Position numbers and translations under genes: made by a program
Shown: one piece after another, positions 1,431-63,716 of the stretch
How the letters are laid out: the number at the start of each line of letters is the position of its first letter
Position numbering within the stretch: the stretch's first letter is position 1
Assembly (NCBI GenBank): GCA_963827655.1
Contig: CAWHCF010000022.1
Coordinates: forward strand, 348,967 to 412,966
Length of the DNA stretch: 64,000 bases
Direction of reading: 5' to 3'
Source of the DNA: an uncultured Acidobacteriota bacterium
GTDB taxonomy: Bacteria; Acidobacteriota; UBA6911
The notes under the pieces: generated by a model
The model's input: only the letters and a program-made list of their open reading frames with translations
Told to the model about the DNA's origin: nothing
Database searches by the model: none

Positions 1431-1507
1431 TTCTTCGTGTCTTTGTGTCCTAGTGGTATTGGTTTCATAGCGCTAACCGCAAAGACACGAGGACGCGAAG
1501 AAATACC
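1431..1507. repeat. repeat family A, full palindromic copy (inverted GAAGACAC-unit arrays)
   Basis: ttcttcgtgtctttgtgtcctagtggtatt...taaccgcaaagacacgaggacgcgaagaaatacc. Confidence 0.8.
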
Positions 1508-2702
1508 AAGAGCGGTAGAGTTGTTTTCACGCATTGCTTCCAGGCTCCACGCAGAAACAAATCCACTCTATAGAATCCGCGCCCAGATCGAGTCCCGGGG
1601 AGAGCAGATACTCGACCTTGTCTCGGGAAATCCCAACCAGCACGGCATATTTTTTCCTCAAGAGCCGCTCGAAGCCAGTCTGATTCGTGGCGCGAGGCAG
1701 GCTCGCTGCTATCATCCCGATTCGTTAGGGCAGCGTCCGGCGCGGGAAGCCATTTCGTCCTACTATCGAAACCAGGGACTGGCAATCCCGCCCGAAAACA
1801 TCCTGCTTACTCCCGGAACCAGCATTTCTTACTGGTACTGCTTTAAACTGCTGGCCGATGAAGGGGAGGAGATTCTGTGTCCGCGCCCCTCGTATCCGCT
1901 CTTCGACTACATTGCCGAAATGAGCGGCGTGCGAATGGTTTCTTACCCTATGGACGAGGCTCGCGCCTGGGCTATCGACCTCGATCGTCTGGAGGCCTCG
2001 ATCTCCACCGGCACTCGTGCCATCATCCTCATATCGCCGCATAATCCCACCGGCCACGTCGCTTCGCTCGATGAGATCCACGGACTGGCCGAGATCGCCC
2101 GCCGGCATGACCTGGCGATCATCAGCGATGAGGTCTTCAGCGAATTCCTTTTCGAGTCCCAGGTCTTGCCCCGCGCGGCCGCCAGCGCCGCTCCGCTGGT
2201 TTTTACCCTCAACGGCTTCTCCAAAATGTTCGCTCTGCCCGGCCTCAAGCTGGGCTGGATGACGGTCTCGGGCCAGAGCGACCAGGTGAAAGACGCGATC
2301 CGCAGCCTGGAGCTGATCTCCGATACCTTCTTACCGGTGAATGAAATGGTTCAGGCGGCAGTCCCCGCCATCTTCGAGGAGGGGGGGACCTTCTTGAGAT
2401 TCTATGCTCGAGAAATAGCGCAGCGCTGGATGGAGGCGCGGCGGATTCTGAGCCGCTGCGCTCACATCGCCTTCGTCGAACCTGGAGGAGGATTCTACGT
2501 TACGCTGAAGCTCCAGAGCATTGAGGAAGAGCCGGCCGCGCAAGCAATTCTCGCCACCAACCATTTGCTGGCACATCCGGGTTACTTTTATGACATCGAT
2601 CCCGATCACCTGGTTTTGAGCTTCATCCAGGAGCCGGAGATCATCCGGACCAGCCTTCCCCGCCTTATTGCCACGTTAGAACATGCGTCCCGCTGTCTGT
2701 GA
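1437..2702 (+). CDS. PLP-dependent aminotransferase class I/II
   Basis: 'ISPHNPTGH', 'NGFSKMFALPGLKLGW' (Lys in the SK motif) and overall fold-type I aminotransferase pattern. The listed N-terminus is a read-through of the repeat at 1431-1507, so the true start is probably downstream (TTG near 1521). Confidence 0.75.
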   Translation: MSLCPSGIGFIALTAKTRGREEIPRAVELFSRIASRLHAETNPLYRIRAQIESRGEQILDLVSGNPNQHGIFFPQEPLEASLIRGARQARCYHPDSLGQRPAREAISSYYRNQGLAIPPENILLTPGTSISYWYCFKLLADEGEEILCPRPSYPLFDYIAEMSGVRMVSYPMDEARAWAIDLDRLEASISTGTRAIILISPHNPTGHVASLDEIHGLAEIARRHDLAIISDEVFSEFLFESQVLPRAAASAAPLVFTLNGFSKMFALPGLKLGWMTVSGQSDQVKDAIRSLELISDTFLPVNEMVQAAVPAIFEEGGTFLRFYAREIAQRWMEARRILSRCAHIAFVEPGGGFYVTLKLQSIEEEPAAQAILATNHLLAHPGYFYDIDPDHLVLSFIQEPEIIRTSLPRLIATLEHASRCL

Positions 2703-2808
2703 TTCTTCACGGTACGCACGTCAAGCAAACCAACAGGGAATCAAAGAATCGCTTGATGCCGGGCAGCGCAGGATCTATGATGGCGCACATCAAGTCACAA
2801 CCGGAGAT

Positions 2809-3648
2809 ATGTCAATGAATCGCTGGAGTAGACTGCTCATTGCGCTCGTGCTCGCGTCTCCCGTCTCGGCAGCTGAGTTGCAGAAGCCTGCCGCTTCACC
2901 CGCGATCCTCGCGCAGCCGTTCGCTTCCCGAGAAGAAATCGAGGAATTCTTACGAAATGCCAGGATCGTCAAAGCGAAAGGGACCGGTATCGGCATTACA
3001 AACCCCCTGAAGCTTACGCTCGACGATGGCCGCGTACAGCACTTCGCGGTCTTCAAGAGCATTGACGAGAGGAAGCCCGGAGTGACCCAGCTCGCCGCCA
3101 GCACCGAAATCGATTTCAAGGATTCCTGGATGTTCGAGGTCGCCGCCTACGAGCTCGACAAGCTGCTGGGACTCGACATGGTCCCGGTAACCATCGAGAG
3201 GACTTATAACGGACATAAGGGATCGCTGCAGTTCTGGATTGATAACTGCATAATGGAGAGCGACCGGTTGAAGCGAAAGCTCAATCCCCCTGATCCCACG
3301 TCGTGGAAACAGCAAATTTTCAAGGTCCGAGTCTTCGATAACCTGGTCTATAACATCGATCGCAATCTCGGAAACCTGCTGATCACGCCCGAATGGAAAT
3401 GTTACATGATCGATCATTCGCGCAGCTTCAAGAATGTCGACGCCCTCAAGTCGCCGAAAGACCTGACCTACTTCTCTCGTTCGTTGATTGAGAGTCTTCA
3501 AAAACTCGACGAGCAAACGGTGAAGACGCGCTGCGAGAAATACCTCACGCTTTACGAAGTGAGAACCATGCTCCGCCGCCGCGATAGGATCGTTCAGCTC
3601 TTTACCAGTCTCCTGGCGGAAAAAGGCGAGAGCATAGCCTACCCATAG
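2809..3648 (+). CDS. secreted hypothetical protein with a PI3/PI4-kinase-like catalytic-loop motif
   Basis: Start chosen at 'MSMNRWSRLLIALVLASPVSAA' (signal peptide). 'VYNIDRNLGNLLIT...CYMIDHSRSF' resembles the DRxxxN catalytic loop plus DFG-like segment of type II PI4-kinase/PI3_PI4-kinase-like folds. Confidence 0.45.
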   Translation: MSMNRWSRLLIALVLASPVSAAELQKPAASPAILAQPFASREEIEEFLRNARIVKAKGTGIGITNPLKLTLDDGRVQHFAVFKSIDERKPGVTQLAASTEIDFKDSWMFEVAAYELDKLLGLDMVPVTIERTYNGHKGSLQFWIDNCIMESDRLKRKLNPPDPTSWKQQIFKVRVFDNLVYNIDRNLGNLLITPEWKCYMIDHSRSFKNVDALKSPKDLTYFSRSLIESLQKLDEQTVKTRCEKYLTLYEVRTMLRRRDRIVQLFTSLLAEKGESIAYP

Positions 3649-3650
3649 GA

Positions 3651-3745
3651 TCTAGGATTCAGTAGGATTCGGTTAGGAATCCTGAATCCTAGATCCTAGA
3701 TCCTGGCTCCTGAATCCTGATCCTGGATCCTAAACCTGGTTGATC
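3651..3745. repeat. long imperfect palindrome built of AGGATTC/GAATCCT/GATCCTG units between convergent genes (terminator-like)
   Basis: tctaggattcagtaggattcggttaggaatcctgaatcctagatcctagatcctggctcctgaatcctgatcctggatcc. Confidence 0.6.
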
Positions 3746-5430
3746 GGCAGCTTGATCGTAAAGGTGGAACCCTGTCCGAGCTCGCTGGACACCTGGATTG
3801 AACCCTGGTGCTCCTTGACTATGCTATAGGCGACCGCAAGGCCCAGACCGACTCCCACCCCCACACCTTTGGTGGTGAAGCCCGGATCAAAGATCTTGTC
3901 AAGGTGCTCAGCGGGAATACCCGACCCGGTGTCCCTGATGGAAATCACGATTTCGTCCCCTTCTCGCCGGGTGTCTACGAACACCTGTCCCTTTCCCTTG
4001 ATTGCCTGGCAGGCGTTCGTCAACAGGTTCATGAAGGTTTCGTTAAGGAGGGCCGGATAGCACGGAAGTGCCGGAACATCGCCGAGGTTCAGCACCACTT
4101 CGACGCGCGGCTGAACCGAAGGGTCCAGCACCTGGACCGTCGCGGTGAGGCCGTCATTAATATTGACCACCTTGAATTCCGACTCGTCGAGCCGAGCGAA
4201 CGAGATTAACGAACGCATCACGCGAACAATGCGCGAGCACGCCGAGACGCTCTCCTGCGCAATATCAATAAGGTGCCGCAAGAGTTTGCTCTCGTCGGGC
4301 GGTCTTCCCTCGGTGGTGGCCAGCCGCCCGAACATAACCATCAGAAGCTCGAGATTCGCCTTAAGGGCTCCCAGGGGACTGTTGACCTCGTGGGCGATTC
4401 CAGCTACCAGCCGGCTCAACGAAGCCATTTTCTCATGCTGATAGAGCTTGAGCTCCGCCTGGCGCAGGGCGGCGGTCCGTTCCGCAACCTCGAGCTCGAG
4501 TTCTTCGTTGGCGCGCTTTATGGCATCGAAGAACCGGGCATTCTCGACCGAAAGGCTGATCTGGGAGGCCACGGCGCACAATAACGTAAGATCGTCGTGG
4601 GTGAAGGCGCCGATAGCCCGATTGTTTTCGAGGTACAGGATGCCGAGCACGCCGGATTTCCCGACCAGCGGCGCGCACACGATCGACCGCAGCCCTCGCA
4701 GCACCACGCTGTGGCCATGGGCAAATCGAGGGTCGGTCCCTGCATCCGCGGTGATGATGGCTTTGCGGTCGTTCATGATGCGCTGGGCGATCGTCGAGGA
4801 GAGGGGCCCGGAAGGAGAGTCCGCCACGGCTTCGTCGCGCCGGCAAATTACGGCGGGGCGCAGCGTGGCTCCCTCTTCTTCGAGAAGGAATATCGCCCCC
4901 TGCTCGGCCTGGGTGCTGGACAACAGGATTTCCACCGCTTTACGGGAGACATCTTCCAGCGAGCGCACTTCGGACAGCGCGCGGCTCAGGTCGAACAAGA
5001 GCCGGAGGGTTCGGCGCTCCTTGGCCGCCGCCATGTCCGAGTCCTCACCCGGTCCGCGGCGGACACCGGACGCAATCTCCTGCACTAGCTGGTCATAGTC
5101 TTCTTCGAGAGTTACCGTCATGTCCGATACCGGAATCGGCCTTCCCTCTACGCTATAGACAAGGGTATGGGTGCCGACTCTGATCTCGTCGTTGTGCTTC
5201 AAGATTGCGTGCTTCACTCTTTTTCCATTGACGAAGATGCCGTTGTAGCTGTCGAGGTCGCTGACCGAGAAATCGTCGCCTTCGCGAGCTATGACTCCAT
5301 GCCGGCGCGAGACTCCCGCCCCTTCGAGGACGATCTGGTTGTCCGAGGCGCGGCCGATCGAGTAGCTCGGTTCCACCAGCGCCATTTTGGTCAGCTGGCC
5401 CGAGGACTTCTTGATTCGCAGGCTGGGCAT
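3730..5430 (-). CDS. sensor histidine kinase with N-terminal FHA domain and GAF domain
   Basis: N-terminal FHA pattern ('[22 protein letters not shown]...[10 protein letters not shown]'), a central GAF-like region, an HisKA H-box ('[11 protein letters not shown]') and an HATPase_c G-boxes ('DTGSGI', '[10 protein letters not shown]'). Confidence 0.85.
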
Positions 5431-5635
5431 TTATTTTCCTTCCACCGTCATCGCGCCTGCAGTTTTCCGGCGCTCCGGCCGGAATCCGTGACACTGAATC
5501 CCACCAGCAACGATGCGAAAGCGCGCAAGAACGCGACCAATTGAAGAAACTATTATCGCCGCGAGGGAACCACAGCGAAAGAGGGAAAAATCGCTTGGTA
5601 TTGTTTGCGCCTCTGTGGCTAACTTATGCAAACCG

Positions 5636-6985
5636 ATGACCTCGATAAACAGCGCCGTGGCGACCGAAGCCAGCACTCCGATAGATTCCTCCGGGATTGG
5701 GGGGCATCCAAGGGGGCTGACGACGCTTTTCTTCACAGAGATGTGGGAGCGTTTCAGCTACTACGGGATGCGAGCCATTTTGATTCTGTACATGGTCGCG
5801 GCGCCGGCCAGTGGTGGCCTCGGTTTCGACACTGCGAAAGCCGCCGCTATTTACGGCGCTTACACCAGCGCAGCCTATCTGACCGCAGTACCTGGAGGTT
5901 GGGTCGCCGACAGATTTCTCGGAGCGCGCAGCGCGGTTCTTTACGGCGGAATTCTCATAGCCCTGGGTCATTTCTCAATGGCGCTCGGGCCGCTCTCTTT
6001 TTTCTTCGCCGGGATGTTCCTTATCGTCATCGGCACCGGATTGCTCAAGCCGAACATCAGCACGATGGTTGGAGGCCTCTACAGCGAGAACGATCCTCGC
6101 CGGGACGCCGGTTTTTCAGTCTTTTACATGGGCATAAACCTCGGAGCCCTGATCAGTCCGCTGGTCTGCGGCTACCTGGGGCAGCGAGTCGACTGGCACG
6201 CGGGGTTTGGCGCCGCAGGCGTTGGCATGAGTCTCGGGTTGGTTCAGTTCCTGGCCCATCGCGATCGGCTGGCGCATGTGGGGAACAAGCCCGACAAGCC
6301 TTACGGGAAGGAAGCGGGGGCCGCGGCGGGCGGACTGACTGCGGAAGAAATGAAGCGCCTGGCAGCCATCGGTATCTTCTTTGTCTTCTCATCCATTTTC
6401 TGGGCTGCGTTTGAGCAGGCCGGATCGAGTTTGAATCTGTTTGCCGACCAGGTCACCGACAACCGGATTGTGGGCTGGGAATTTCCCTCGAGCTGGTTCC
6501 AATCGGTGAATTCAATCTTTCTTATTGTCCTGGCCCCGGTTTTTTCCTGGCTGTGGCTGCGTATGGGTGATCGCCAACCTTCAAGTCCGGCAAAATTCAG
6601 TTATGGTCTGCTGTTTGTCGGCCTGGGTTTCATCCTCGCGGCGCTTGGAGCCTCGGTCGCGGATAGCGGAAAGGTAAGTCCGGCCTGGCTCATCGGGGTT
6701 TACCTTTTCAACACCATTGGAGAACTTTGCCTCAGCCCGGTTGGATTGAGCACAGTCACGAAGCTTGCGCCGGCTCGCCTCGTAGGCTTGATGATGGGGG
6801 TATGGTTTCTGTCGATTTCAGCCGGTAACTATCTTGGCGGATGGATCGCTGGATTCTTCGACGCCACGGCCGAGGGTGCCATGGTCGGTTTGTTTGGAGC
6901 GGTCGCGATCGGAACGCTGGTCACGGCCGGCATCCTGGCCTTGCTCATTCCCTTCATTCGAAGCCTGATGGGCCGCGTCCGTTGA
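5636..6985 (+). CDS. POT/PTR2 family di-/tripeptide:proton symporter (MFS)
   Basis: PTR2 signature '[22 protein letters not shown]'. About 12 TM helices. Start taken at the ATG of 'MTSINSAV'. Confidence 0.8.
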
Positions 6986-8802: not shown

Positions 8803-9189
8803 TCAACTGTGCGAAGGGAGAGGTTCGATCCGGTGTCGCAGCGACCTCTCCACGCGCGCGCTTCGCACCTGGCCCAGGTTTGGGAGCAGGTTGGAGAGGG
8901 TCTGGAGATACCCCTCCAGTGCGGAACGTCCTTCGGCGCTGAGCCGGTACGTGCTCTTGGGCTTCCGGTCTTCGAAGCGCTTGTCGCAGATCACGTATCC
9001 AGCTTCTTCGAGCTTCCGCGCCTGAACGCTTAGATTCCCGTCGGTCGTCTGCAACAACTCCCGGAGCTCCGTGAAGCTCAAAAAGTCCTGAACGACCAGC
9101 GCGGAAAGAATGCCGAGGCGCAGCCGTTCGTGAATCATAGGGTCCAGCTCACTCGGGGTGGGCCTGGTTTTCTTGCTTTTCTTAGCCAT
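8803..9189 (-). CDS. PadR-like winged-helix transcriptional regulator
   Basis: About 128 aa. 'GILSALVVQDFLSFTELRELLQTTDGNLSVQARKLEEAGYV' is the typical PadR/wHTH recognition-helix region. Start taken at MAKKSKK. Confidence 0.55.
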   Translation of the reverse strand: MAKKSKKTRPTPSELDPMIHERLRLGILSALVVQDFLSFTELRELLQTTDGNLSVQARKLEEAGYVICDKRFEDRKPKSTYRLSAEGRSALEGYLQTLSNLLPNLGQVRSARVERSLRHRIEPLPSHS

Positions 9190-9784
9190 TGTGCCTCCAG
9201 GCAATGTACCCGCCATAAACGATGTGCAACCACCCGAAACCTGCCGCCAGCCAGGTAAGCCCCATGCCTGGCGGCGACGCAGCCGCGCCGGTCGCCGTTA
9301 CCAGCAGGCACAGGCCCAGATAGCGCACGGGAGCAACCGAAACCTGCCCGCCGTTTACTACCGCCGCTCCATAGCAGCCGAGCCAGATGGCCGGAAGCCA
9401 CTCCAGGTTGCCCGAACGGACTGCCACACTGGTGAGAATGCCTCCCACGAAAAGCGACGGGCAGAGACTCCACAGCAACTTGCGAAGAAGAGGGGCCTGC
9501 AGTGGCGTGCGCAACTGCAGCGACTTGCGATAGATTCCGTAGGAACAGATGGCAAGGGAGAAGCCCAGGACGTAGCCCCAAACGTCCAGGGCGATGCCCG
9601 GGAACGCGCCCGGCCCCCACGGCGGGCCGGTGATCAAAGAATTGATGGCAACCCCGGCCAGCGCCACAAAGCCGGTTGCCATGAGACCCTTGCCGGGAAC
9701 CGCGGTAAACTGTCCGGCTGCTTCCAGGGTCCGGCGGATGTATTGAAGATCTTCGCGCGCAGTTTCCAAGTTCAACGGTTCCAT
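9182..9784 (-). CDS. integral membrane protein (partner of the PadR-like regulator, overlapping its start)
   Basis: Multiple hydrophobic helices. Its stop overlaps the start of the regulator, which implies an operon. Confidence 0.45.
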   Translation of the reverse strand: MEPLNLETAREDLQYIRRTLEAAGQFTAVPGKGLMATGFVALAGVAINSLITGPPWGPGAFPGIALDVWGYVLGFSLAICSYGIYRKSLQLRTPLQAPLLRKLLWSLCPSLFVGGILTSVAVRSGNLEWLPAIWLGCYGAAVVNGGQVSVAPVRYLGLCLLVTATGAAASPPGMGLTWLAAGFGWLHIVYGGYIAWRHNG

Positions 9785-9868
9785 GCTCCGTGCGCCTCCT
9801 GGATTTCGTGCTTCATCTCACAACACTTCCTCACATATGTCAAGTACTTTGTGTTATAGAGTTAATTG

Positions 9869-9958
9869 CCTTCTTGGTGCTTCTTCGTGTCTTTGAGTCT
9901 TAGTGGTATTCGATTAGACAGCTCTAACCACAAAGACACGAAGACTCGAGCGAAACGC
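9869..9958. repeat. repeat family A, full copy
   Basis: ccttcttggtgcttcttcgtgtctttgagtcttagtggtatt-cgattagacagctc-taaccacaaagacacgaagactcgagcgaaacgc. Confidence 0.85.
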
Positions 9959-9997
9959 AACTTCATGGTAAAGTCGATAACCGAGCGCAGGTGAGAC

Positions 9998-10342
9998 GTG
10001 AAACAACCGATCTGGAACTTCGAGCAGGATCCATCGGATGAGCCGATGGACGAAACCAGCGTCAACCTTCGCGCCTACTTCGACCGAATGGATGACGAGA
10101 AAATGAAGCGCTACAGACCGGACTGGACCGACGAACAGGTCATCGAATGGGACGGCAATTTCCGCGACGACGGCCATCTGATGATTCTTTGCTGCGAGCG
10201 CGATGTGGATGTGGTGGAATACCGCAGGGTGCTGGAACAGTGCATCGACTACCGAAACCGGGCCCGGCCGCAGCTCTTCGCAAAGGATCAACGAGCAAAA
10301 ACCAGCGAAGACAGCGAGCCGAAGGACCAGTCTGGAGGGTGA
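9998..10342 (+). CDS. hypothetical acidic protein
   Basis: ORF only. No recognisable motif. It is preceded by a repeat-A copy. Confidence 0.3.
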
Positions 10343-13125: not shown

Positions 13126-13165
13126 GCAGTAAGCTGCTTGCTGCCTGCTTACTGCTATTGCTTGA
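13120..13165. terminator. hairpin of GCAGTAAGC/GCTTACTGC units directly after the M20 amidohydrolase stop
   Basis: agcagtaagcagtaagctgcttgctgcctgcttactgctattgctt. A further 'tgcttactgcctactatttactgc' lies at 13265-13290. Confidence 0.4.
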
Positions 13166-22240: not shown

Positions 22241-22378
22241 AGAATGCGAACTTATTTCTGCGCGAACCCTAAGATCCTTCGCATTTCTCAACCTCTTCGT
22301 GCTTCCCGGTCGGCGCTGCGGCGAACATACACCGCCAAGATACAAACAAACGCCATGAAGGCGGCGCCCGAAACGTTC

Positions 22379-24237: not shown

Positions 24238-24300
24238 TCTCAGGATTTAGGATTCATGATTCGGCACGACGTCTCGATCCTGAATCCTAGATCCTGAAGA
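24238..24300. repeat. AGGATTC-unit palindrome after moaA (terminator-like). Related to the element at 3651.
   Basis: caggatttaggattcatgattcg-gcacgacgtct-cgatcctgaatcctagatcctg. Shares 'gaatcctagatcctg' with 3651-3745. Confidence 0.6.
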
Positions 24301-26465: not shown

Positions 26466-26540
26466 ACCGATGGCTACGCCGGCTCTGTCCGATCGAATGA
26501 TGTTCGTCAGGGGAACTCGTCATGTCTTCGCGATCGGCCG

Positions 26541-26587
26541 TTAGCGGTTGCATAACCACAAAGACACCAAGACGCAAAGAACACCAG
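26541..26587. repeat. repeat family A, half copy (right-arm type)
   Basis: ...cataaccacaaagacaccaagacgcaaagaacaccagg. Confidence 0.7.
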
Positions 26588-26588
26588 G

Positions 26589-27143
26589 CTAGTTGTGACA
26601 AAGCTTGCAGGCTTTCTCCCGGGGAAACATCAGATGAAACTTCTCGGTCGAACCGTGAGCGTTATGACACTGGCCGCAAACCTCGAGGACTTCGGGCGTG
26701 TGAGAATGCGTCTTGGCGAACGCGGCTTCTTTATGACAATCGAAACAACCGCCTTTGAAGGTAAACCGGCCCCGCCGGCTCATGGCGTGACATTGCGTGC
26801 ATTCGACCTGAACGGGCGGGTGTAACTGGAACGGCTTGAAGTCCGCCGGGGGATTGGGTCCCGCGAAGAAGCGGATCTGCTGGCGGCCTCCCTCCCAGCT
26901 CAGTGCCAGGGTATGAACCCCTGGTGAAAGATTGACCTTTGTCTGCAAGACGCCGGGGGCCGACTCTTCGGCCGCGAGCGGCTTCCCGTCGATTTCGAGC
27001 TTGCCCGCCGGAGCCGTGGCTATGATACTCGTTTCTCCCGAAGGGAGCGCGGCCCCATCGGTCGGTCGCAGAATTCGTCCTTCAGTTTGAGCATGCGCCG
27101 CTGCGAGGCACAGCAGCACCGTGAACCAGATACGCTTCGTCAT
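26589..27143 (-). CDS. secreted tetrahaem cytochrome c
   Basis: CTQCH, CFDCH, CGQCH, CKLCH. Signal peptide 'MTKRIWFTVLLCLAAAHA'. Confidence 0.75.
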   Translation of the reverse strand: MTKRIWFTVLLCLAAAHAQTEGRILRPTDGAALPSGETSIIATAPAGKLEIDGKPLAAEESAPGVLQTKVNLSPGVHTLALSWEGGRQQIRFFAGPNPPADFKPFQLHPPVQVECTQCHAMSRRGRFTFKGGCFDCHKEAAFAKTHSHTPEVLEVCGQCHNAHGSTEKFHLMFPREKACKLCHN

Positions 27144-27907
27144 AGATGGATGCGGCAGACGTAGCCTGCGAACTTGCTGTCGTTACTCTTGCCGGACGGC
27201 GCAATGCCAGCGTCGCAGTAGTAAATGCTTCCGCGCTCCCAGGTCAAGCCGTGCGGGTCCGGGTCTTCTTTGCTGAGCTGCACGGCCTCCAGAATACGGC
27301 CATCTTTGGGATCGAGCCTGTGGATCACCAGGTCGTTCGAGAACAGGCACCAGATTGATTTGCCATCCCACCCCAGGCCGTGAGCGCGGGTCAGCGTAAC
27401 CGGAATGCTGTGGAGTTCCTTGAAGTTCACATCAACCTGGATCAGTTTCTGAAGCTTGAGCGCCGTTATCCACAGCGAGTTCGCTACCCAGATCAGACCG
27501 TGAACACCGCCCCCTCCGGGGATCGGATAACGCGCAACGGTCTTGCCGCTTGTGGCGTCGATCTTGACGACCTCGCCGCTGGTAGCGTCGCGCGGACGAG
27601 CCGGCCGGTTACGGGCCGGACCGTTGGCCGCCATCCACAGGAATCCGCCGCCATAAGCGATGCCGCTGGTGTTGGACGATTCGGTCTCGACCTTGCGCAA
27701 CACTTTCCCCGTCTTCCAGTCGAGCAGGTACGCGACGTCGCTGACCTGTTCGGCAACCCAGAGTCCCTCCTCGGTTGATTCGAGACCATTTGGATTCCCA
27801 TCGGGCGATTTGAACAAAGGTTCGATTTTGCCCTTGCGCACGGGGTGGTTGGTTCCGGCAAAGGCGCTCGCCGTAAATCCCAGCAGTAGTTCTCTTCGAG
27901 TAAGCAT
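27140..27907 (-). CDS. Tat-signal beta-propeller protein (possible glutamine cyclotransferase-like)
   Basis: Start chosen at 'MLTRRELLLGFTASAFAG' (twin-arginine). The longer ORF N-terminus is a read-through of the repeat at 27928-27975. Confidence 0.5.
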   Translation of the reverse strand: MLTRRELLLGFTASAFAGTNHPVRKGKIEPLFKSPDGNPNGLESTEEGLWVAEQVSDVAYLLDWKTGKVLRKVETESSNTSGIAYGGGFLWMAANGPARNRPARPRDATSGEVVKIDATSGKTVARYPIPGGGGVHGLIWVANSLWITALKLQKLIQVDVNFKELHSIPVTLTRAHGLGWDGKSIWCLFSNDLVIHRLDPKDGRILEAVQLSKEDPDPHGLTWERGSIYYCDAGIAPSGKSNDSKFAGYVCRIHL

Positions 27908-27927
27908 TACAGCCCCCTTCGGCAAAG

Positions 27928-27975
27928 ATTTTGGTGTTTCTTCGTGTCTTTGTTCCTTGGTGGTATTGTTTTCGC
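27928..27975. repeat. repeat family A, half copy (left-arm type)
   Basis: ttttggtgtttcttcgtgtctttgttccttggtggtattg. Confidence 0.75.
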
Positions 27976-29109
27976 CTATTTTCGAATCCTCACCAGGCTG
28001 CGGTTGATGTCGGAGATCCTGGCGACACCGGCCAGTCCCATGTCGAGGGCAAGTTCGGTCCGGAGCAGTTCCAATACCCGGGACACTCCACGCTGTCCGA
28101 ATGACGCAAGTCCCCAGAGGTAAGGCCGGCCGATCCCGACCGCCGTCGCCCCCAGCGCGAGCGCTTTCAGGATATCGGTGCCGCGCCGAAACCCGCCGTC
28201 GATCAGCAGCGGCATTTTCCCGCCCGCAGCCTCGACGCACTCCGGTAGAGCTTCAATCGTAGCCCCGACATGGTCGAGCTGTCGAGCGCCATGGTTCGAA
28301 ACCACGGCCGCCGAGACACCGGTCTTCACGCATTTCTCGGTGTCTTCCGCGGTGAGAATTCCTTTGATGATGATGGGCAACTTCGTCACGTCCCGAAGTT
28401 GCTGGATGGCTTCCCAGGTCGGGGTCGGAAAAGGACGCGACGGGTACTCGCCGGCCTGCCATGGCCTGTCGGTCGGCTTGAAGATCAAGTTGCCTTGAGC
28501 GTCGCGAGGAACGCCCTCCATCTCGCACCAAACGCGAATAAACCGGTTCCGCATGCTGCGCTCCCGGTGCGACACGTGCATGTTGTCGACCGTGAAGCAG
28601 ATCCCCCCGCAGCCCATGTCTTCCAGCTTTTCCACGAAATCGACCATCATGCTCTTGGTGCGCAGTTGCCCGCCGAGGGTATACTGCCACCAGGTCTTCG
28701 GACCCTTGCCCGAGGCGAGAAACTTGTCGATGCCGCCGTTCGTCACCATGACCGCATTCGACGCCGCCGCCGCCGCCGCCGTTTCCTGCTCGCCGTTGCG
28801 GAAGAAACAGTTCTTACCCCCCGCGGGACAAATGAATATCGGATACTCCAGCTTGTTGCCCAGCAACGTGGTCGACAGATCGATCTTGTGCACATCGGTC
28901 AGGAACCGGGGTCTCAGGATGATGCGATTGAAAGCTTCACGATTGTCTCGCAACGAGACCTCGTCCTCGGCTCCCTCGGACATGTAATCCCATGCGACCT
29001 TGTCGACCTTGGCCTGCGCCAGCTTTTCAAAATCAAAGACATTGATGGGGTGGAGCAGTGGATCCTCGGTCTTGATCAGATCCTGCCCCATGAGTAACGG
29101 GGACGCCAA
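27976..29109 (-). CDS. FMN-dependent alpha-hydroxy acid dehydrogenase/oxidase (L-lactate/glycolate oxidase family)
   Basis: FMN_dh family pattern. C-terminal 'PLLIDGGFRRGTDILKALALGATAVGIGRP'. Confidence 0.85.
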   Translation of the reverse strand: MASPLLMGQDLIKTEDPLLHPINVFDFEKLAQAKVDKVAWDYMSEGAEDEVSLRDNREAFNRIILRPRFLTDVHKIDLSTTLLGNKLEYPIFICPAGGKNCFFRNGEQETAAAAAASNAVMVTNGGIDKFLASGKGPKTWWQYTLGGQLRTKSMMVDFVEKLEDMGCGGICFTVDNMHVSHRERSMRNRFIRVWCEMEGVPRDAQGNLIFKPTDRPWQAGEYPSRPFPTPTWEAIQQLRDVTKLPIIIKGILTAEDTEKCVKTGVSAAVVSNHGARQLDHVGATIEALPECVEAAGGKMPLLIDGGFRRGTDILKALALGATAVGIGRPYLWGLASFGQRGVSRVLELLRTELALDMGLAGVARISDINRSLVRIRK

Positions 29110-36284: not shown

Positions 36285-36382
36285 AAATTCCTGACCCTTG
36301 GCGTCTTGGCGGAAGCAACCGCCAGGACGCAAGGGGTTGAGTAGACCTGCGCATTAGACTTCGCGGTTAGCGTTTCATATCC

Positions 36383-41595: not shown

Positions 41596-41616
41596 ACCGG
41601 GGACGTTGGATTGATT

Positions 41617-41698
41617 CCGGTGTTTCTTCGTGTCTTTGAGTCTTAGTGGTATTGGTCGGGCAGCCTAACCACGAAGACTCGAAGACACCAAGAAACTC
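41617..41698. repeat. repeat family A, full copy
   Basis: ccggtgtttcttcgtgtctttgagtcttagtggtatt-ggtcgggcagcc-taaccacgaagactcgaagacaccaagaaactc. Confidence 0.85.
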
Positions 41699-41725
41699 TA
41701 AGCATTGACGAACGTACCCGGTCTT

Positions 41726-43581: not shown

Positions 43582-43589
43582 TCCAGAAT

Positions 43590-43745
43590 CAGCTTACAGC
43601 CATCAGCGATCAGCGCATCAGCTAATCAGCGTTCAGCCGTCAGCTGAGGAGTTGCCTGGCGCACCATCGAAATCAACGCATGCTGGAGACCTGATTCAGA
43701 AGCTGAATGCTGATAGCTGAAGCTGATTGCTGAAAGCTTCCGTCG
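43590..43745. repeat. inverted ATCAGC / GCTGAT unit arrays downstream of the UxuA-like gene
   Basis: cagcttacagccatcagcgatcagcgcatcagctaatcagcgttcagccgtcagctga ... cagaagctgaatgctgatagctgaagctgattgctgaaagc. Confidence 0.55.
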
Positions 43746-44400: not shown

Positions 44401-44443
44401 AACCAACCACGAAGACTTCGAAGACACGAAGAACCTCTAAGAC
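44401..44443. repeat. repeat family A, half copy (right-arm type)
   Basis: aaccaaccacgaagacttcgaagacacgaagaacctctaagac. Confidence 0.75.
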
Positions 44444-49447: not shown

Positions 49448-49483
49448 AATACCGCTAAGACGCGAAGACACAAAAAAACACGG
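49448..49483. repeat. repeat family A, half copy (reverse-complement of the left arm)
   Basis: aataccgctaagacgcgaagacacaaaaaaacacgg. Confidence 0.7.
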
Positions 49484-53800: not shown

Positions 53801-54709
53801 GCCTAGCTCGGCCCGCCGCGCGGCGTCGCTCGCGGTGGTCTCCTCGAAGATGCGGTCCACGGCCTCCAGGCTGCCGAACCGGGCGGCCAGCGCCAGGGCC
53901 TGGTCCCGATCTTCGGGCGCGGCGGTGGTAAACGCCAGGACGGCGGACGCTCCCGACTCGACCCGGATCCGCCGGCGCAGGCTGAAGACCGGGTCCAGCA
54001 CCGGCCCCACGGTCCCCGAAAGCGCCGCGCCGCCGTCCATCGCCGCCGGGTTCGCCGTGGAGCGTCCCCGCCCCAGGAAGCGAGCGCGGTCGGTCTCGTA
54101 CTCGACCTCTCCCGGCGCATCGCTTGCCAGAACATGGAGAGCCCAGACCGGCTGCTGATCGTGGGCGCGCGGCCGGCGGCGGCAAAGCAGGGCGCGCGAC
54201 GACGCGAGGTATTCGGTCTCCAGGAAGAGCTTGGCGAAGGCCGGGTGTGCCTGGTCGGCGCGGCGCGGATTGAGTGCCACCTCGGCGTAGCTCGTCACCT
54301 CCAGCGTGCGGGGCCTGTCGCCGCGGTTGGTAAGGGTGACGCGGCGGACTTCCGCGTCGGCGTCGGGAACGACCGCGACTTCGTAACAGGTCTCCACGTC
54401 GCCGTCGCGACGACGGAAAATCGCGCGGTCGGGACGCAGATCCGCCTTGTACTCGTCGGCGTTTCGCCCGAGGGGCTGGCGCCCGGCAGACCAGGCGCGG
54501 CCGTCGTCCAGGTCGCGGACGTAGCAGTACTGGCCCCAGCAGTCGCGGGTAGCGTCCTCCCGCCAGCGGGTCACGTCCATCCCGTCCCGGAGGCTGTAGC
54601 CACCCCCCGACGCGGTCAACATGACGCTGTAGCGGCCATTGGAAAGCAGGCAGATTTCCGGGGGCGAACCGGGAAGGTCAACGAGGTTCGGCTTTTTCGG
54701 CTTTGACAT
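50821..54709 (-). CDS. GH94 family glycoside phosphorylase (1,2-beta-oligoglucan/cellobiose phosphorylase-like), reading frame broken once near 52630
   Basis: N-terminal beta-sandwich domains in ORF 52178..54709. The catalytic (alpha/alpha)6 region 'GFRDQLQD...GTGDWNDGMN' is in ORF 50821..52479. A third-frame read across the junction gives 'RVSFTTDRAEFLGREGSPEAPAALG...DPCAALMTPLDV'. Confidence 0.8.
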
Positions 54710-54725
54710 CTTGGAATACCTGCAC

Positions 54726-54813
54726 GATTCTTGGCGTTTCTTCGTGTCTTTGAGACTTGGTGGTATTTGTTAGACAGTTCTAACCACGAAGTCACGAAGA
54801 CACGAGCACACGG
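54726..54813. repeat. repeat family A, full copy
   Basis: gattcttggcgtttcttcgtgtctttgagacttggtggtattt-gttagacagttc-taaccacgaagtcacgaagacacgagcacacgg. Confidence 0.85.
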
Positions 54814-54880
54814 CAAGTATGGAACGGGACTGAACGCCGCTGAACTGTAATAGGTAGCAGGTGGCCGGAATGAAGTCCGC

Positions 54881-55429
54881 TCAAGGCGCTCGAAGCTTCG
54901 CAAGTGAAGTGGCTCCGACGTACACTCCACGAATAATCAGCATCGCCAGGAAGATGAACGCCGGCTCCCAGGTCAGTCCCCCGACGAGGTGCCCCCAGAA
55001 ATGGAGATTGATCGAACTTCCCAGTGCATATTCCGGAGCGTGGAAGATCGTTTCCCGCCCGCTCGCCCAGGTGTACCCGAGGCCGATCAGTTCGACCAGC
55101 ATGTAAGGCAAGATCACTAGATACGAGATTACCAGCCGTTCCTTCGAGGATCGGGTCTTCCACCCAAAGTAGAAGCACGCGACAAGAATCACGGCCGACA
55201 TGCTGGCGAATTTCGTGACCGCATTCGGCACGCCGATCAGGGTCAGCGTAAAACGAATGCCGCCTACAAGCATGATGGCCCCAACGAACCACCAAGCCTG
55301 TCTCTGTTTTTCGATTAGAGCTTTGAGTTCTTCCATGTCGATGGTGTCATCATTCTTCGCCGCGGAACCAAACGTCAACCTCGAAGACGCAAGGCCGCAA
55401 AGAAACGTGAAGAATAGCGTCAATCCCAT
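54881..55429 (-). CDS. hypothetical integral membrane protein
   Basis: 4-5 predicted TM helices. No motif. Confidence 0.4.
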   Translation of the reverse strand: MGLTLFFTFLCGLASSRLTFGSAAKNDDTIDMEELKALIEKQRQAWWFVGAIMLVGGIRFTLTLIGVPNAVTKFASMSAVILVACFYFGWKTRSSKERLVISYLVILPYMLVELIGLGYTWASGRETIFHAPEYALGSSINLHFWGHLVGGLTWEPAFIFLAMLIIRGVYVGATSLAKLRAP

Positions 55430-57423: not shown

Positions 57424-58731
57424 ATGCCTGCAAAACTTTCCCGCCGAGTCTTCCTGAGAGGGTTGGCCCTGACAAGCGTTCCGGTTCGAATGGCGCTTCC
57501 GCCGTTGGCGGCGATGTTCGATAGCCGCGGTGAAGCTTATGCGGCCGACGACCAGCCGATCGAGTCGCGTTTCGTGCTCTGGTTCAACGGGAATGGCATT
57601 CCGGAAAAGTACTGGATTCCGATGGAAACGGGAGAGAAATACAGTCTGACGCCTTGTCTCACCCCTCTGGCTCCGTTTCGCAGCGACATTCACGTCGTTA
57701 CCGGGCTGGACAACGCGGCTGCGACGCTGCCCGGACCCGGCAACGGCCATCACAAATCAATGAGCGCGCTGATGACCGGAACCTCGTTCACCGGGCGCGG
57801 CGCGGGCGGCCCATCCATCGACCAGGCGATTGCTTCCAAGATCGGCGGGGATACCCGATTCCGTTCGCTCCAGATTGGCGTCTCGCAGGAATCATTCGGA
57901 GAGAGTGTTCAGCGGAACATGAGCTGGGCGGCGCACGACCGGCCGCTCCCTCCCGAGATGCTGCCGCACAAGCTTTTCGATCGGCTGTTCGGACAGCGGG
58001 AGTTGGGCTGGGTCAAGCGACAGAAGAGCGTTCTGGACGCCGTCCGGGAAGATGCCCGGCAGCTGAAGCGAACCGTCGGCCAGCAGGATCAAGCTCGACT
58101 TGAAGAACATCTCGACTCCGTGCGCGACGTCGAACGAGCGATCGCCAGCCTTCCCCCAAAGTACCATCGAGTGGATCCTCCCGACTACGACGGTGACATG
58201 AAGGATTGGCCTCGGATCGCAAAGCTGCAATCCGATCTGCTGGCCCACGCGTTCTCAACCGGGCAGACGAGGGTGGCCTCCTACATGCTGACCAAGTGTC
58301 AGGGGTTGTCGCGCTTTCCCTGGCTGGGATACACGGCGGCGCGGCACCACGACTATACTCATCGCGACGGGAAGGCGCCGGGGGCCGATGGGCCCGATGG
58401 CCAGCGCATCCTGCGCGACATTTGCCGCTGGCACATCGAAGAGTTCGCCTACTTTCTCGGAAGATTGAAATCGGTTCCGGAAGGAAATGGGACGCTGCTC
58501 GATCGCTGCGCGGTGCTTCTGGTTCACGAGCATGCCGAGGCGAACGACCACAAGAACAACGGCCTGTCCGTCATACTTGCCGGACATGCCAAAGGGTTGA
58601 AAACCGGCCTCCACACACGAACCACCGGCACCACGGGAGATCTTTACCTGACCCTTGCCAACGACGTTATGGGCGCAGGGCTGGAGCGCTTCCCGACGGC
58701 CGAGCGCAAGCTGACCGAGATTCTTGCCTGA
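57424..58731 (+). CDS. DUF1552 family protein with Tat signal
   Basis: '[17 protein letters not shown]'. Conserved 'HHDYTHRDG' region. Starts 4 nt after the DUF1592 stop. Confidence 0.8.
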
Positions 58732-58736
58732 AAAAA

Positions 58737-58778
58737 CTTACCGCTAAGACTCAAAGACACGAAGAAACGCCAAGAATC
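58737..58778. repeat. repeat family A, half copy (reverse-complement of the left arm)
   Basis: cttaccgctaagactcaaagacacgaagaaacgccaagaatc. Confidence 0.8.
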
Positions 58779-58819
58779 TTTGCCCCAAAAAGCAAGCACA
58801 GCTCGTGCCGCGGTCCCAG

Positions 58820-59339: not shown

Positions 59340-59345
59340 CCAGCC

Positions 59346-60275: not shown

Positions 60276-60277
60276 TC

Positions 60278-62266: not shown

Positions 62267-62298
62267 CAGAGTCCGCCTTCGTCCATTAGCATCACCAA

Positions 62299-62340
62299 TT
62301 AAACCACAAAGACACAGAAGCGCGAAGAAGCGCCAGGAAT
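62299..62340. repeat. repeat family A, half copy (right-arm type)
   Basis: ttaaaccacaaagacacagaagcgcgaagaagcgccaggaat. Confidence 0.7.
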
Positions 62341-62348
62341 GGGCTCCG

Positions 62349-63611
62349 TCAAACCGCGTCGAAATCCCATCCGAAACCCGGCCGGTCCGATGGGCGCATG
62401 TAGATTCCTTCCGGCCCTCGGCTGATCTGGTTATCCTCTTCGTAACGTTTGTAGACTTCGGGAGGACCGCCGGGCGCCGGCATGAACAGCTCAGCCCAGG
62501 GGCTGTTGACCGTGGCCATGATGAAATGCACGGAGTCCTGGCTTCCGCCTCCGTGTGGAATCACCGGAATGTCATAAGCCGCCGCCAGCGCCCCGATGCG
62601 ACGCAACTCGGTCATGCCTCCGCACCAATGGATGTCGGGCTGCCAGATGCTGTTCACGCCCTGCTCGAGCAGCTGGCGGAATCCATACCGGGTGTACTCG
62701 TGTTCTCCCGTCACGATCCGGGTTGATTTGATCGCGGCATGCAGCCTGCCGAAGCCGGCGTAGTCGTGCGGCTGCAGACACTCTTCCATCCAGTACACTC
62801 GATAGGGGGCCATCATTTCGGCGATTTCGATGGTATAGCGCTCGGTCCATGCCATCCAGCAGTCGAGCATGATCTCGCCGTCCGGTCCCAGCAATTCGCG
62901 GGTTCGTTTTACCAGCTCCACATTCTTCTTCATTCCTTCGCGGCCATCGGCCGGACCGTGTGGAATCGCGAGCTTGAGTTTCTTGTAGCCGAACTCGACG
63001 TGCTGCTCGATGTCGTTTCCCGTGCAATAGGCCGGGAGCCGCGGCTTGGTTTCCCCGCCCAGGAGCTTGTAGACCGGCATGTCCAACGCCTTGCCGATCA
63101 GATCCCAAAGCGCTATGTCGACGCCGCTGATCGCATTGATGACCACGCCCTTTCTGCCGTAGTACATCGTCGAGCGCCACAGGATGTCCCAGATTCGTTC
63201 GATGTTGAACGGGTCTTCGTTGAGCAGCAGCTTGGTAAGGTGTTTTTCTACGATGAGCCCTCCAGCCGTCCCGCCGCTTCCGTAACCTTTCAATCCTTTG
63301 TCCGTCCCGATCTCGACGGTGAACCCTCCCAGCTGGCCGGGATCAGGCTGGAATAACGACCGTTTTGCTTTGTACTCGGCATAAATGGACATCGGGTTTG
63401 CGACTTCAACCCCGCCGGTGGACCAGGAGCCGGGCGCCGGTTTGTAGGAAGGCACCGGCTTTCGCGGCCTGGTCTGGACCAGGCGCACGCTGGTGATCTT
63501 GAGTTTGCTCTTTTCGCCTGAACGCTGGAAAGCCGCCATCACTGGCGCCTGGCCGGCGAGAGCGGTGGCCGAGGCCACGGGCGCGACTCTCAAGAAATCT
63601 CTACGATCCAT
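62349..63611 (-). CDS. enolase-superfamily enzyme (mandelate racemase/muconate lactonizing family, sugar-acid dehydratase-like) with Tat signal
   Basis: 'MDRRDFLRVAPVASATALAG'. Has an MR_MLE N-domain and C-terminal barrel. Confidence 0.8.
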   Translation of the reverse strand: MDRRDFLRVAPVASATALAGQAPVMAAFQRSGEKSKLKITSVRLVQTRPRKPVPSYKPAPGSWSTGGVEVANPMSIYAEYKAKRSLFQPDPGQLGGFTVEIGTDKGLKGYGSGGTAGGLIVEKHLTKLLLNEDPFNIERIWDILWRSTMYYGRKGVVINAISGVDIALWDLIGKALDMPVYKLLGGETKPRLPAYCTGNDIEQHVEFGYKKLKLAIPHGPADGREGMKKNVELVKRTRELLGPDGEIMLDCWMAWTERYTIEIAEMMAPYRVYWMEECLQPHDYAGFGRLHAAIKSTRIVTGEHEYTRYGFRQLLEQGVNSIWQPDIHWCGGMTELRRIGALAAAYDIPVIPHGGGSQDSVHFIMATVNSPWAELFMPAPGGPPEVYKRYEEDNQISRGPEGIYMRPSDRPGFGWDFDAV

Positions 63612-63670
63612 GGTTTTCCTTGCCTCCCGGAATACTCCGCATTGTACCCGAATCTTCCTCAGGGATGTAT

Positions 63671-63716
63671 CGCGTCTTCGTGTTTCTTCGTGTCTTTGCG
63701 TCTTCGCGGTGGTTGC
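63671..63716. repeat. repeat family A, half copy (left-arm type, with a duplicated unit)
   Basis: cgcgtcttcgtgtttcttcgtgtctttgcgtcttcgcggtggttgc. Confidence 0.7.

Follow-up and report, generated by a model that had tools for sequence, protein, structure and literature searches.

Intergenic octamer palindromes in an acidobacterial genome look like the footprint of a widespread element linked to GxxExxY nuclease genes

What are the periodic palindromes scattered between the genes of this acidobacterial DNA, and how did they come to be there? A sequence-only reading had proposed that the window (the whole stretch analysed, 64 kb) holds about 12 copies of an unrecognised REP/MITE-like family. Using an nhmmer profile built from the window's four full palindromes, we recovered about 13 copies: the four full palindromes (profile E 7e-26 to 9e-29), each where that reading had placed it, and about nine half or degenerate copies, among them the half copies it had named at 58739-58779, 49448-49483, 27925-27972 and 63676-63727. 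A 29-mer left arm occurs five times in the window with up to 3 mismatches and not once in 100 dinucleotide-preserving shuffles, and the 15-mer TTCTTCGTGTCTTTG is identical throughout seven window copies. The copies, together with a related hairpin, are as follows.

E1, 1428..1511, + strand: full head-to-head palindrome (E 6.6e-26; -41.6 kcal/mol, z -6.3) made of arm TTCTTCGTGTCTTTGTGTCCTAGTGGTAT, a 14-nt loop and inverted arm TAACCGCAAAGACACGAGGACGCGAAGAA; between a cytochrome c peroxidase gene (true stop 1419-1421) and an aminotransferase gene (about 1521-2702).
E2, 9867..9962, + strand: full palindrome (E 1.8e-28), outer word TTCTTGGTG, loop TTAGACAGCTC; between divergent genes 9182-9784(-) and 9998-10342(+).
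E3, 22278..22358, - strand: weak, possible degenerate copy (E 0.0017).
E4, 26517..26587, - strand: inverted arm TAACCACAAAGACACCAAGACGCAAAGAACACCAGG clear, other arm decayed (E 6e-6); between convergent genes.
E5, 27925..27972, + strand: single arm GTTTCTTCGTGTCTTTGTTCCTTGGTGGTATT (E 2e-6); 3 nt off the stop of gene 27976-29091(-) and upstream of 27140-27907(-).
Sister-flavour hairpin, 36296..36335, no strand assigned: short, head-to-head, of CTTGGCG words, CCCTTGGCGTCTTGGCGGAAGCAACCGCCAGGACGCAAGGGG.
E6, 41615..41703, + strand: full palindrome (E 3.3e-27; -43.6 kcal/mol, z -7.0); between convergent genes 40534-41595(+) and 41726-42145(-).
E7, 44406..44442, - strand: single inverted arm AACCACGAAGACTTCGAAGACACGAAGAAC (E within 0.002-0.005); 9 nt past the stop of a Uma2 (PD-(D/E)XK) gene.
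E8, 49448..49483, - strand: single inverted arm beginning AATACCGCTAAGACGCGAAGACAC (E within 0.002-0.005); 11 nt past the stop of gene 48267-49436(+).
E9, 54725..54818, + strand: full palindrome (E 8.8e-29), outer word TTCTTGGCG, loop TTAGACAGTTC; between co-directional (-) genes.
E10, 55330..55413, - strand: degenerate copy (E 0.0045) in a divergent spacer, overlapping the extended N-terminus of ORF 54881-55429(-).
E11, 58739..58779, - strand: single inverted arm TTACCGCTAAGACTCAAAGACACGAAGAAACGCCAAGAA (E 1.3e-8); 7 nt past the stop of DUF1552 gene 57490-58731(+).
E12, 62286..62341, - strand: single inverted arm AAACCACAAAGACACAGAAGCGCGAAGAAGCGCCAGGAA (E 3.5e-4); between co-directional (-) genes.
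E13, 63676..63727, + strand: single arm GTCTTCGTGTTTCTTCGTGTCTTTGCGTCTTCGCGGTGGT (E 2.2e-4).

Each window arm, about 30 nt long, is a tandem run of three or four YCTTNGTG 8-mers that closes with GTGGT. The 8-nt periodicity, the outer word TTCTTGG(C/T)G and the loop TTAGACAG(C/T)TC common to the copies at 9867 and 54725 were found as first described. The 8-mer array itself held as a run of periodic words but not as a literal repeat: GAAGACAC is only mildly enriched in the window (6 found vs 2.15 expected), and the word is degenerate (CRCNAAGN; YCTTNGTG on the other strand). In its general form, the word has 8 nt (sometimes 9), with six conserved positions and two free ones (CRC-N-RRG-N, or N-CYY-N-GYG on the opposite strand), and each run of words terminates in ACCAC/GTGGT. 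The basic module is one non-palindromic arm. It can stand alone or be paired, either head-to-head (the arrangement of the full window copies) or tail-to-tail (the commonest arrangement elsewhere), and it also forms alternating, BIME-like arrays (loci L013 and L048).

This arm is common to more than 10 phyla and is neither lineage-specific nor restricted to Acidobacteria. Among the matches listed, a pattern with 21 specified bases, TTCTTCGTGTCTTTGNNNCNTNGNGGT, occurs in more than 93 genome stretches, including finished isolates, from phyla such as Chloroflexota, Planctomycetota, Acidobacteriota, Cyanobacteria, Bacteroidota and Pseudomonadota; by our own estimate, about 0.3 matches would be expected by chance. 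The six unconstrained positions of the pattern are conserved too in the matches listed (for example, T in 77/95, G in 92/95, T in 93/95 and T in 89/95), and the arm-pattern loci contain 145 occurrences of the general form (N5GTG)x3, compared with 8-12 in shuffles. The window sub-variant GAGTCTTAGTGGTAT is found in close relatives only and marks a lineage-specific subfamily, and other genomes have subfamilies of their own with longer common flanks, such as a 140-nt element in Caldilineales. No matching family was found in Rfam, and sequence and keyword searches of the literature returned no description of the element and no catalogued REP, BIME or MITE family to which it belongs. The window repeat resembles what a widespread and apparently undescribed selfish element would leave behind.

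The key to interpreting the repeat family is its link to a gene for a GxxExxY protein, an uncharacterised small PD-(D/E)XK nuclease of ~130 aa (PF13366/TIGR04256). At loci L070 (two genes), L002 and L048, GxxExxY genes have an inverted arm on one side and an arm on the other. In an independent sample of 80 metagenomic GxxExxY loci, an inverted repeat between the flanks with a score of at least 14 was present in 54/80 loci and in 0/52 controls, and 45/80 had at least two inverted-type words upstream and at least two arm-type words downstream, compared with 1/98 distant control segments; judged by eye, arms of octamer or nonamer words are present at about 70 of the 80. These arms come in the flavours CAC.AAG, CAC.GAG, CGC.AAG (that of the hairpin at 36296..36335) and CGC.GAG. 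Flavour tracks the GxxExxY clade, a small but significant effect (mean protein identity 56.4% within a flavour vs 51.8% between flavours; permutation p<=2e-4), and every locus of the strict window flavour in this sample has a protein that ranks within the 25 nearest the query. In finished replicons of Gemmatirosa, Bernardetia and Sphingomonas, arms border annotated GxxExxY genes. The 50 kb around one such gene in Gemmatirosa contain ORF-less hairpins of the same flavour that are near-identical to the gene-flanking ones, some of them nested within one another's loops. The sequence-only reading had the dispersed palindromic family right and missed its cross-phylum reach, its single-arm module and its link to this gene.

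Comparison of related genomes shows how the elements come and go. In Sphingomonas parapaucimobilis, an arm-ORF-arm unit with a GxxExxY ORF lies between fabD and fabG, where S. paeninsulae has a bare spacer of 31 nt with no arm, indicating that the arms travel with the gene and are not a pre-existing target. E6 is retained at the orthologous site in a 93% identical relative, with its arms conserved (one change, at a free position) and its loop diverged; it is missing at the same site in relatives of 78-81% amino acid identity, one of which has a copy elsewhere. E7 differs from its counterpart in a relative in octamer number, with a 19-nt indel. One GxxExxY protein recurs in identical form on 23 contigs, in the same genomic context on all of them, which gives no sign of very recent transposition.

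Could these hairpins instead serve the host, as unconventional terminators or mRNA 3'-end stabilisers spread by recombination, with GxxExxY as a frequent lodger? Such roles are established for some REP elements, and the placement of the copies is suggestive. All window copies lie between genes on a gene map that is 86% coding, as had been claimed, and overlap only ORF ends lengthened by the element itself (317..1453, 1437..2702, 27140..28240 and 54881..55429), including the two N-termini, of 1437..2702 and 27140..28240, that had been suspected of such inflation. Copies occupy 4/10 convergent vs 6/34 co-directional spacers in the window, the ACCAC end begins 0-30 nt past a stop codon in 41/75 cases, and 29/44 tail-to-tail hairpins adjoin a gene end. 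The stems fold strongly (-25 to -54 kcal/mol), and the full window copies, whose folding had been proposed as a check, reach -31.6 to -43.6 kcal/mol as RNA (z -2.8 to -7.0). At the E6 site, moreover, another kind of short-repeat hairpin, made of TTGACGA words, directly follows the same gene in more distant relatives. We nevertheless regard a host-serving role as unlikely. The two free positions per octamer are complementary between arms at chance level only (observed 0.46/0.41/0.33/0.49 vs expected 0.31/0.37/0.35/0.51); pairing itself is therefore not the conserved property, which favours inverted arrays of protein sites over a selected RNA stem. The window hairpins have no U-tract, a terminator scan calls none of the copies, and stability shows no bias towards the sense or the antisense strand (10 v 10). 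The earlier preference for protein-binding half-sites over a simple terminator is thus sustained with respect to the terminator, and the binding sites are putative. Many copies are single arms unable to fold, divergent spacers are also used, the arms in Sphingomonas came together with the ORF, and pure structure gives no reason for the same 27-nt sequence in more than 10 phyla.

A conventional non-autonomous element with no relation to GxxExxY, whether a MITE descended from a DDE insertion sequence or a REP moved by a RAYT (Y1) transposase, would also be dispersed, intergenic and multi-copy, and would accommodate the alternating arrays, the genome-specific subfamilies and the gain and loss between genera. 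It appears improbable to us, since the single arm, being non-palindromic and devoid of a GTAG-type tag, falls outside the definition of a REP, and this arm is common to many phyla, unlike the lineage-specific classical families of REPs and MITEs. Target-site duplications, which the earlier reading had suggested looking for, were not seen at the four full window copies, the Caldilineales element or the Sphingomonas site, and no transposase recurs among 196 ORFs neighbouring arms, where PDDEXK_3 is the sole recurrent small family. We likewise give little credence to an RNA-level element, in which the arms would pair in the transcript as an RNase III-type processing stem, freeing or insulating the mRNA inside it, and copies that lack the gene would signal processing or decay: the ORF-in-a-stem-loop architecture, the long stems (~28-32 bp with regular mismatches) and the co-orientation of GxxExxY with the upstream host gene in 51/60 loci, which suggests read-through expression, would suit it, but on the sense strand G-U pairs do not significantly exceed A-C (69 v 57), single arms are common, and the results given above on free positions, strand energy and Rfam stand against it too.

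We consider it probable that the elements in the window belong, as solo or MITE-like derivatives lacking an ORF, to a widespread GxxExxY-associated octamer inverted-repeat family, the full-length form of which encloses, or clusters around, a GxxExxY gene. Family membership, cross-phylum spread, gene linkage, co-variation of flavour and clade, one filled/empty site and the lack of arm covariation are directly supported. The words would be sequence-specific recognition sites, set in inverted arrays, for an oligomeric nuclease that may bind or cut them and mobilise them. Nuclease, arms and ORF-less copies could then form a selfish unit that spreads both inside genomes and from phylum to phylum, perhaps much like REPIN/RAYT, with differing chemistry, or like a free-standing homing-endonuclease cassette. 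Copies would settle in short spacers just past stop codons, where they are presumably tolerated and would also make strong hairpins at gene 3' ends. A cognate nuclease in the source genome is assumed; neither the window nor the 56 kb examined from acidobacterial relatives contains a GxxExxY gene. Besides the shared context of the 23 contigs, the lack of any target-site duplication seen and the small size of the flavour effect, several observations count against this reading: only about 5% of arm-bearing genome loci have a GxxExxY gene; gene geometry varies, with 14/80 GxxExxY genes placed in the opposite gap or flanked by whole hairpins; the full window copies are head-to-head and not in the commoner tail-to-tail arrangement; and we know of no strand-transfer activity in a lone PD-(D/E)XK nuclease, so that the copying step lacks an account. 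Viral contigs, which also count against it, yielded 60 stretches with arms and no GxxExxY gene, some with other small ORFs between the arms.

Among known systems, 23S rRNA intervening sequences likewise hold a small ORF within a long stem of flanking inverted repeats, but those lie in rRNA helices and encode PF05635, whereas the elements here lie in mRNA spacers, are associated with PF13366 and gave no evidence of RNA-level selection. MITEs such as Correia/NEMIS of Neisseria and Nezha of cyanobacteria share terminal inverted repeats, a length of 60-150 bp, intergenic placement, hairpin-forming transcripts and ORF-less derivatives that far exceed the coding form; here, the inverted repeats have an internal periodicity, target-site duplications were not seen, and the candidate parent encodes a ~130-aa nuclease and not a DDE transposase. 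The cyanobacterial STRR heptamers and small dispersed repeats (reportedly described in Mazel 1990 and Elhai 2008) are tandem 7-8-nt intergenic words, often in inverted arrays, mutually nested, of unknown function and in similar kinds of host genomes. Their words differ, and they are not known to be linked to any nuclease gene. Free-standing homing endonucleases, especially the PD-(D/E)XK enzyme I-Ssp6803I, resemble the family in having a small selfish nuclease gene inside a palindromic sequence, in the filled/empty polymorphism in a conserved operon (fabD-fabG) and in nesting within hairpin loops, but here the arms travel with the gene, ORF-less copies are many per genome, and there is no intron or intein. 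REPIN-RAYT systems of Proteobacteria (REP/BIME, TnpA-REP) differ in their partner, a Y1 HUH transposase in place of a PD-(D/E)XK nuclease, in the arm, which here is non-palindromic, lacks a GTAG head and is built of tandem 8-nt words, and in being species-specific where this arm sequence is cross-phylum. What the two share is short intergenic repeats at gene ends, present as singles, inverted pairs and alternating arrays in hundreds of copies, concerted subfamilies within genomes, and a tie to one dedicated enzyme gene, present in one or few copies, which has the repeats on both sides.

Four full copies of the octamer repeat claimed by the sequence-only reading were located in the window, and a profile built from them rescored the four at E-values of 7e-26 to 9e-29 and matched nine more half or decayed copies. 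The full copies, together with the further copies referred to by name below, are:

1428-1511, full copy
9867-9962, full copy
41615-41703, full palindromic copy (E6)
44406-44442, single inverted arm (E7)
49448-49483, copy E8
54725-54818, full copy (E9)
55330-55413, decayed copy (E10)

The left arm occurs five times in the window when up to three mismatches are allowed, as compared to no occurrence in 100 shuffles. Read as the literal 8-mer GAAGACAC, the repeat is only weakly enriched (6 observed vs 2.15 expected), because the true repeat word is degenerate. On a self-trained gene map of the window (86% coding), every copy lies in a spacer, which agrees with the strictly intergenic placement reported earlier. 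Copies are found in 4 of 10 convergent, 6 of 34 co-directional and 3 of 9 divergent spacers, so that octamer elements occupy a quarter of the window's spacers. The claimed inflation of ORFs was also borne out: several mechanically called ORFs are extended through an element, meaning that these elements distort gene calls and that recognising them improves annotation. Target-site duplications, which the same reading had proposed to look for, did not emerge: no direct repeat borders any of the four full copies.

Two genes next to copies show further irregularities. The cytochrome c peroxidase gene (317-1453) apparently ends in another frame (TAA, 1419-1421) and its long ORF continues into the element, which either a frameshift or an error in sequencing could explain. 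The ORF at 50821-52479(-) shares ~300 nt, read in another frame, with the ORF upstream of it at 52178-54709(-), the tail of which looks unlike protein; at this position, a metagenomic relative with 93% identity (L094) carries one GH94 gene of >1295 aa, which suggests that the GH94 copy of the window (50821-54709) may be frameshifted.

The basic module is one arm of ~30 nt with three to four tandem 8-mers (YCTTNGTG; six positions fixed, two free) and a terminal GTGGT, the arm termini being TTCTTC and GTGGT(K)A. On its own, an arm (TTCTTCGTGTCTTTGTGYCTTYGTGGT) contains no inverted repeat, and two arms are required per hairpin. In the window, an arm is followed by a loop of 12-14 nt and then by an inverted arm, a head-to-head arrangement, and the half copies are lone arms. 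Folding of the full copies, likewise proposed earlier, gave -31.6 to -43.6 kcal/mol. Tail-to-tail pairs (ACCAC-words-GAAGAA, loop, TTCTTC-words-GTGGT) are the commonest arrangement in the matched genomes; the genome loci contain 44 such hairpins, whose folding energies range from -17 to -54 kcal/mol and lie below -22 with one exception. Arrays of alternating arm orientation are present in three loci (L013, L048 and L123). The ACCAC end typically starts 0-30 nt past a stop codon. Arm orientation relative to genes is unbiased (66/49/57/57), and the folding strength of genome hairpins shows no sense or antisense preference with respect to the strand of the flanking genes.

The two free positions of each word are complementary between arms at no more than chance level, with no significant excess of G-T over A-C pairs. 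The hairpin potential therefore stems from inverted copies of conserved words, and such an arrangement would suit the needs of an oligomeric sequence-specific protein, and a selected RNA stem would look different. The few window changes that look compensatory (GAGTC/GACTC, GACTT/AAGTC) are common to one subfamily and do not represent independent events. An intrinsic terminator would combine a GC-rich stem and a short loop with a U-tract, whereas the window hairpins are not followed by a T-run, and none of those at 41-60 kb was called by a consensus terminator scan. Some copies in other genomes end in T-runs, and octamer hairpins may well also influence transcript 3' ends.

Close homologues of the window's 2-hydroxyacid dehydrogenase come from sources named as acidobacterial, which places the window in this group, and the exact protein of one window gene has no database entry. 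Beyond the window, one scan of a species-representative genome collection with a pattern of 21 specified bases matched at least 93 genome stretches, including finished isolate genomes. The matches listed comprise Chloroflexota, Planctomycetota, Acidobacteriota, Cyanobacteria, Bacteroidota, Nitrospirota, Verrucomicrobiota and Synergistota, as well as Alpha- and Zetaproteobacteria and several candidate phyla. Six positions left unspecified in the search pattern are themselves strongly conserved among the matches listed, and a generalised form of the arm is ~14-fold above shuffles in the matched loci. The window copies match this cross-phylum arm profile (at least three tandem CRC-N-RRG-N words, an ACCAC/GTGGT end and inverted pairs). 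To our knowledge, rRNA, tRNA and riboswitches apart, it is very rare for a non-coding 27-mer to be conserved between phyla. Rfam gave no match at gathering score over the whole window, and at E ≤ 10 returned sub-threshold, hairpin-shaped miRNA models alone. A search of plasmids with the consensus hairpin (blastn) gave no match, for which the low-complexity filter is the probable reason. Literature searches on the arm sequence returned primers and unrelated papers.

A link to a protein family was found in an Anaerolineales locus, where arm arrays surround a small ORF encoding a GxxExxY protein (NCBIfam TIGR04256, E 1e-39), an uncharacterised PD-(D/E)XK protein of ~130 aa; other GxxExxY genes of this first locus set are bordered exactly by an inverted arm on one side and an arm on the other. 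In an independent sample of 80 metagenomic GxxExxY loci, selected by protein similarity alone, a strong inverted repeat connects the two flanks in 54 of 80 loci, as compared to 0 of 52 controls. Word counts identified arms at 45 of the 80 loci (1 of 98 control segments), and by inspection ~70 carry arms of 8- or 9-nt words with the same grammar. These words come in different flavours (CACNAAG, as in the window, CACNGAG, CGCNAAG, CGCNGAG and others), and the flavour tracks GxxExxY protein similarity (permutation p ≤ 2e-4), with the window flavour being restricted to the 25 proteins nearest the query. The geometry of gene and arms varies among the 80 loci, some genes being flanked by two whole hairpins, and gene and upstream neighbour are co-oriented in 51 of 60 cases. 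Among the 196 ORFs neighbouring arms, which are diverse housekeeping genes, PDDEXK_3 is the sole recurrent family. In the motif of the protein, the acidic residues and the lysine show no or almost no variation, and a PDB sequence search with the protein gave no match. PF13366 has been described as a family of unknown function with multiple transfers between divisions (2012 survey, PMC3424549); searches on GxxExxY/PF13366/TIGR04256, on PDDEXK with repeats and on IVS protein names yielded nothing on topic beyond this entry.

Arm-flanked GxxExxY genes are also present in annotated finished replicons of Gemmatimonadota, Bacteroidota and Alphaproteobacteria. Sphingomonas parapaucimobilis carries an arm-ORF-arm unit in the fabD-fabG spacer, whereas this spacer is 31 nt long and armless in S. 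paeninsulae. In this single case, with species ~74% identical, arms and ORF were therefore gained, or lost, together. No direct repeat was seen at the Sphingomonas insertion. In Gemmatirosa, ORF-less hairpins near-identical to those flanking a GxxExxY gene are found within 50 kb around that gene, some of them nested in the loops of others. On plasmid 1 of Gemmatirosa kalamazoonensis (L255, 5501-5641 and 18239-18398), hairpins of CACAGAGG words are nested in the loops of hairpins of CGCAGAGG words, which suggests loops as preferred insertion points. An identical GxxExxY protein in differing genomic contexts was not found, and there is therefore no sign of very recent movement. Neither the window nor the acidobacterial relatives compared (L094-L099) contain a GxxExxY gene. 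On viral contigs, arms are present without GxxExxY, and some enclose other small ORFs. One such ORF, on an IMG/VR contig (L201, 3030-3480), encodes an unrelated protein of ~130 aa without a Pfam match and has window-flavour arms on both sides, one of them inverted; non-GxxExxY cargo therefore exists. A small ORF of the window (54881-55378, predicted 165 aa) lies between E9 and E10, a position like that of cargo genes elsewhere. Pfam gave no informative match for the cargo ORFs of the viral contigs and the window.

Comparison of orthologous sites addresses the stability of the copies. On the metagenomic contig 93% identical to window 33-51.6 kb, E6, E7 and E8 are retained in place. The arms of E6 are the same save for one change at a free position, while its loop and flanks have diverged, and E7 differs by a 19-nt indel that deletes words. 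In relatives at 78-81% protein identity, E6 is absent from its orthologous site, and one of them carries an octamer-family copy at another position. The window sub-variant of the arm occurs only in close relatives of the window. Copies therefore persist for a while, are turned over from genus to genus and constitute subfamilies specific to a lineage. In place of E6, at the orthologous position, L096 (7107-7180; also L097 and L098) has a different hairpin of TTGACGA heptamers that immediately follows the stop codon. L094 moreover contains 2.6 kb (3388-5982) without counterpart in the window (at 36372-36382), with several small ORFs of 45-76 aa; this segment begins right beside a hairpin of CTTGGCG flavour, a possible insertion or deletion hotspot.

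Other periodic repeats and an associated gene were observed in the window:

3646-3698 and 24240-24297, second palindromic family of 7-nt words (TAGGATCTAGGATTCAG / ATCCTGAATCCTAGATCCTGA)
13118-13156, short hairpin whose arms repeat the heptamer AGCAGTA in tandem (AGCAGTAAGCAGTAAGC / GCTGCCTGCTTACTGCT)
38855-38895, a further periodic palindrome (acgtcaacgtagacgttagacgttgac), located in a spacer flanked by two (-) strand genes
43580-43740, long inverted array of ATCAGCK-type heptamers upstream of the Uma2 gene
43872-44396, Uma2 gene (PF05685, PD-(D/E)XK), directly followed by E7; gene position conserved in relatives

In L055, a locus from Planctomycetaceae, heptamer words of the second palindromic family (atcctgaatcctaaatc) adjoin an octamer arm. 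With the heptamer array before it and E7 after it, Uma2 may be a second small nuclease family bracketed by periodic repeats.

From these comparisons, we conclude that the window elements probably belong, as ORF-less members, to a repeat family associated with a nuclease. The GxxExxY nuclease would recognise the octamer words, and recombination between two whole hairpins, such as those flanking some genes, would leave exactly the solo head-to-head hairpin seen in the window. More broadly, GxxExxY proteins could be the nucleases of a previously unrecognised selfish class, a proposal to which we give slightly less than an even chance: a ~0.5-kb cassette bounded by inverted arrays of 8-nt words would have spread over most bacterial phyla and seeded genomes with thousands of ORF-less hairpins, those of the window included, forming a second, mechanistically different partnership of the REPIN/RAYT kind. 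If true, this would give the large, widely transferred, function-unknown family PF13366/TIGR04256 its first functional context and explain the cross-phylum conservation of a non-coding 27-mer. Should the nuclease read 8-nt words in tandem, each with two free positions, it would also be a candidate modular DNA-recognition system.

Among known element classes, REP/BIME sequences are likewise intergenic, as are all octamer copies in the window, and form arrays of alternating orientation. However, their units are imperfect palindromes of 20-40 nt with a conserved GTAG-type 5' tetranucleotide, whereas the octamer arm is non-palindromic by itself and lacks GTAG. The gene flanked by REP repeats is a Y1 (IS200/IS605-like) RAYT, which is recurrent neither among the 196 neighbour ORFs nor in the top Pfam families of 80 of these ORFs; the recurrent gene of the octamer repeats is PDDEXK_3. 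MITEs share terminal inverted repeats with the octamer family (44 tail-to-tail hairpins; flanks of the GxxExxY ORF), but are flanked by target-site duplications, none of which was seen for the full window copies, a Caldilineales element or the Sphingomonas insertion, although a 2-nt TA duplication may exist. The autonomous parent of a MITE encodes a transposase; the octamer family also has a coding form, which encodes a PD-(D/E)XK nuclease not known to have transposase activity. CRISPR arrays consist of constant-length direct repeats with unique spacers of similar length, unlike the octamer copies, which are dispersed and inverted, with arrays that alternate in orientation and have two recurring loop types. 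DnaA boxes (a single mismatch separates TTAACCACA from TTATCCACA), Chi-like sites, MetJ-type 8-bp met-boxes, Rho rut sites, S1/Hfq binding, integron attC sites and CRISPR remnants were dropped as unsupported. With homing endonuclease genes, the octamer family shares a nuclease ORF that occupies a conserved site in some genomes and is missing from it in others, as in the fabD-fabG spacer.
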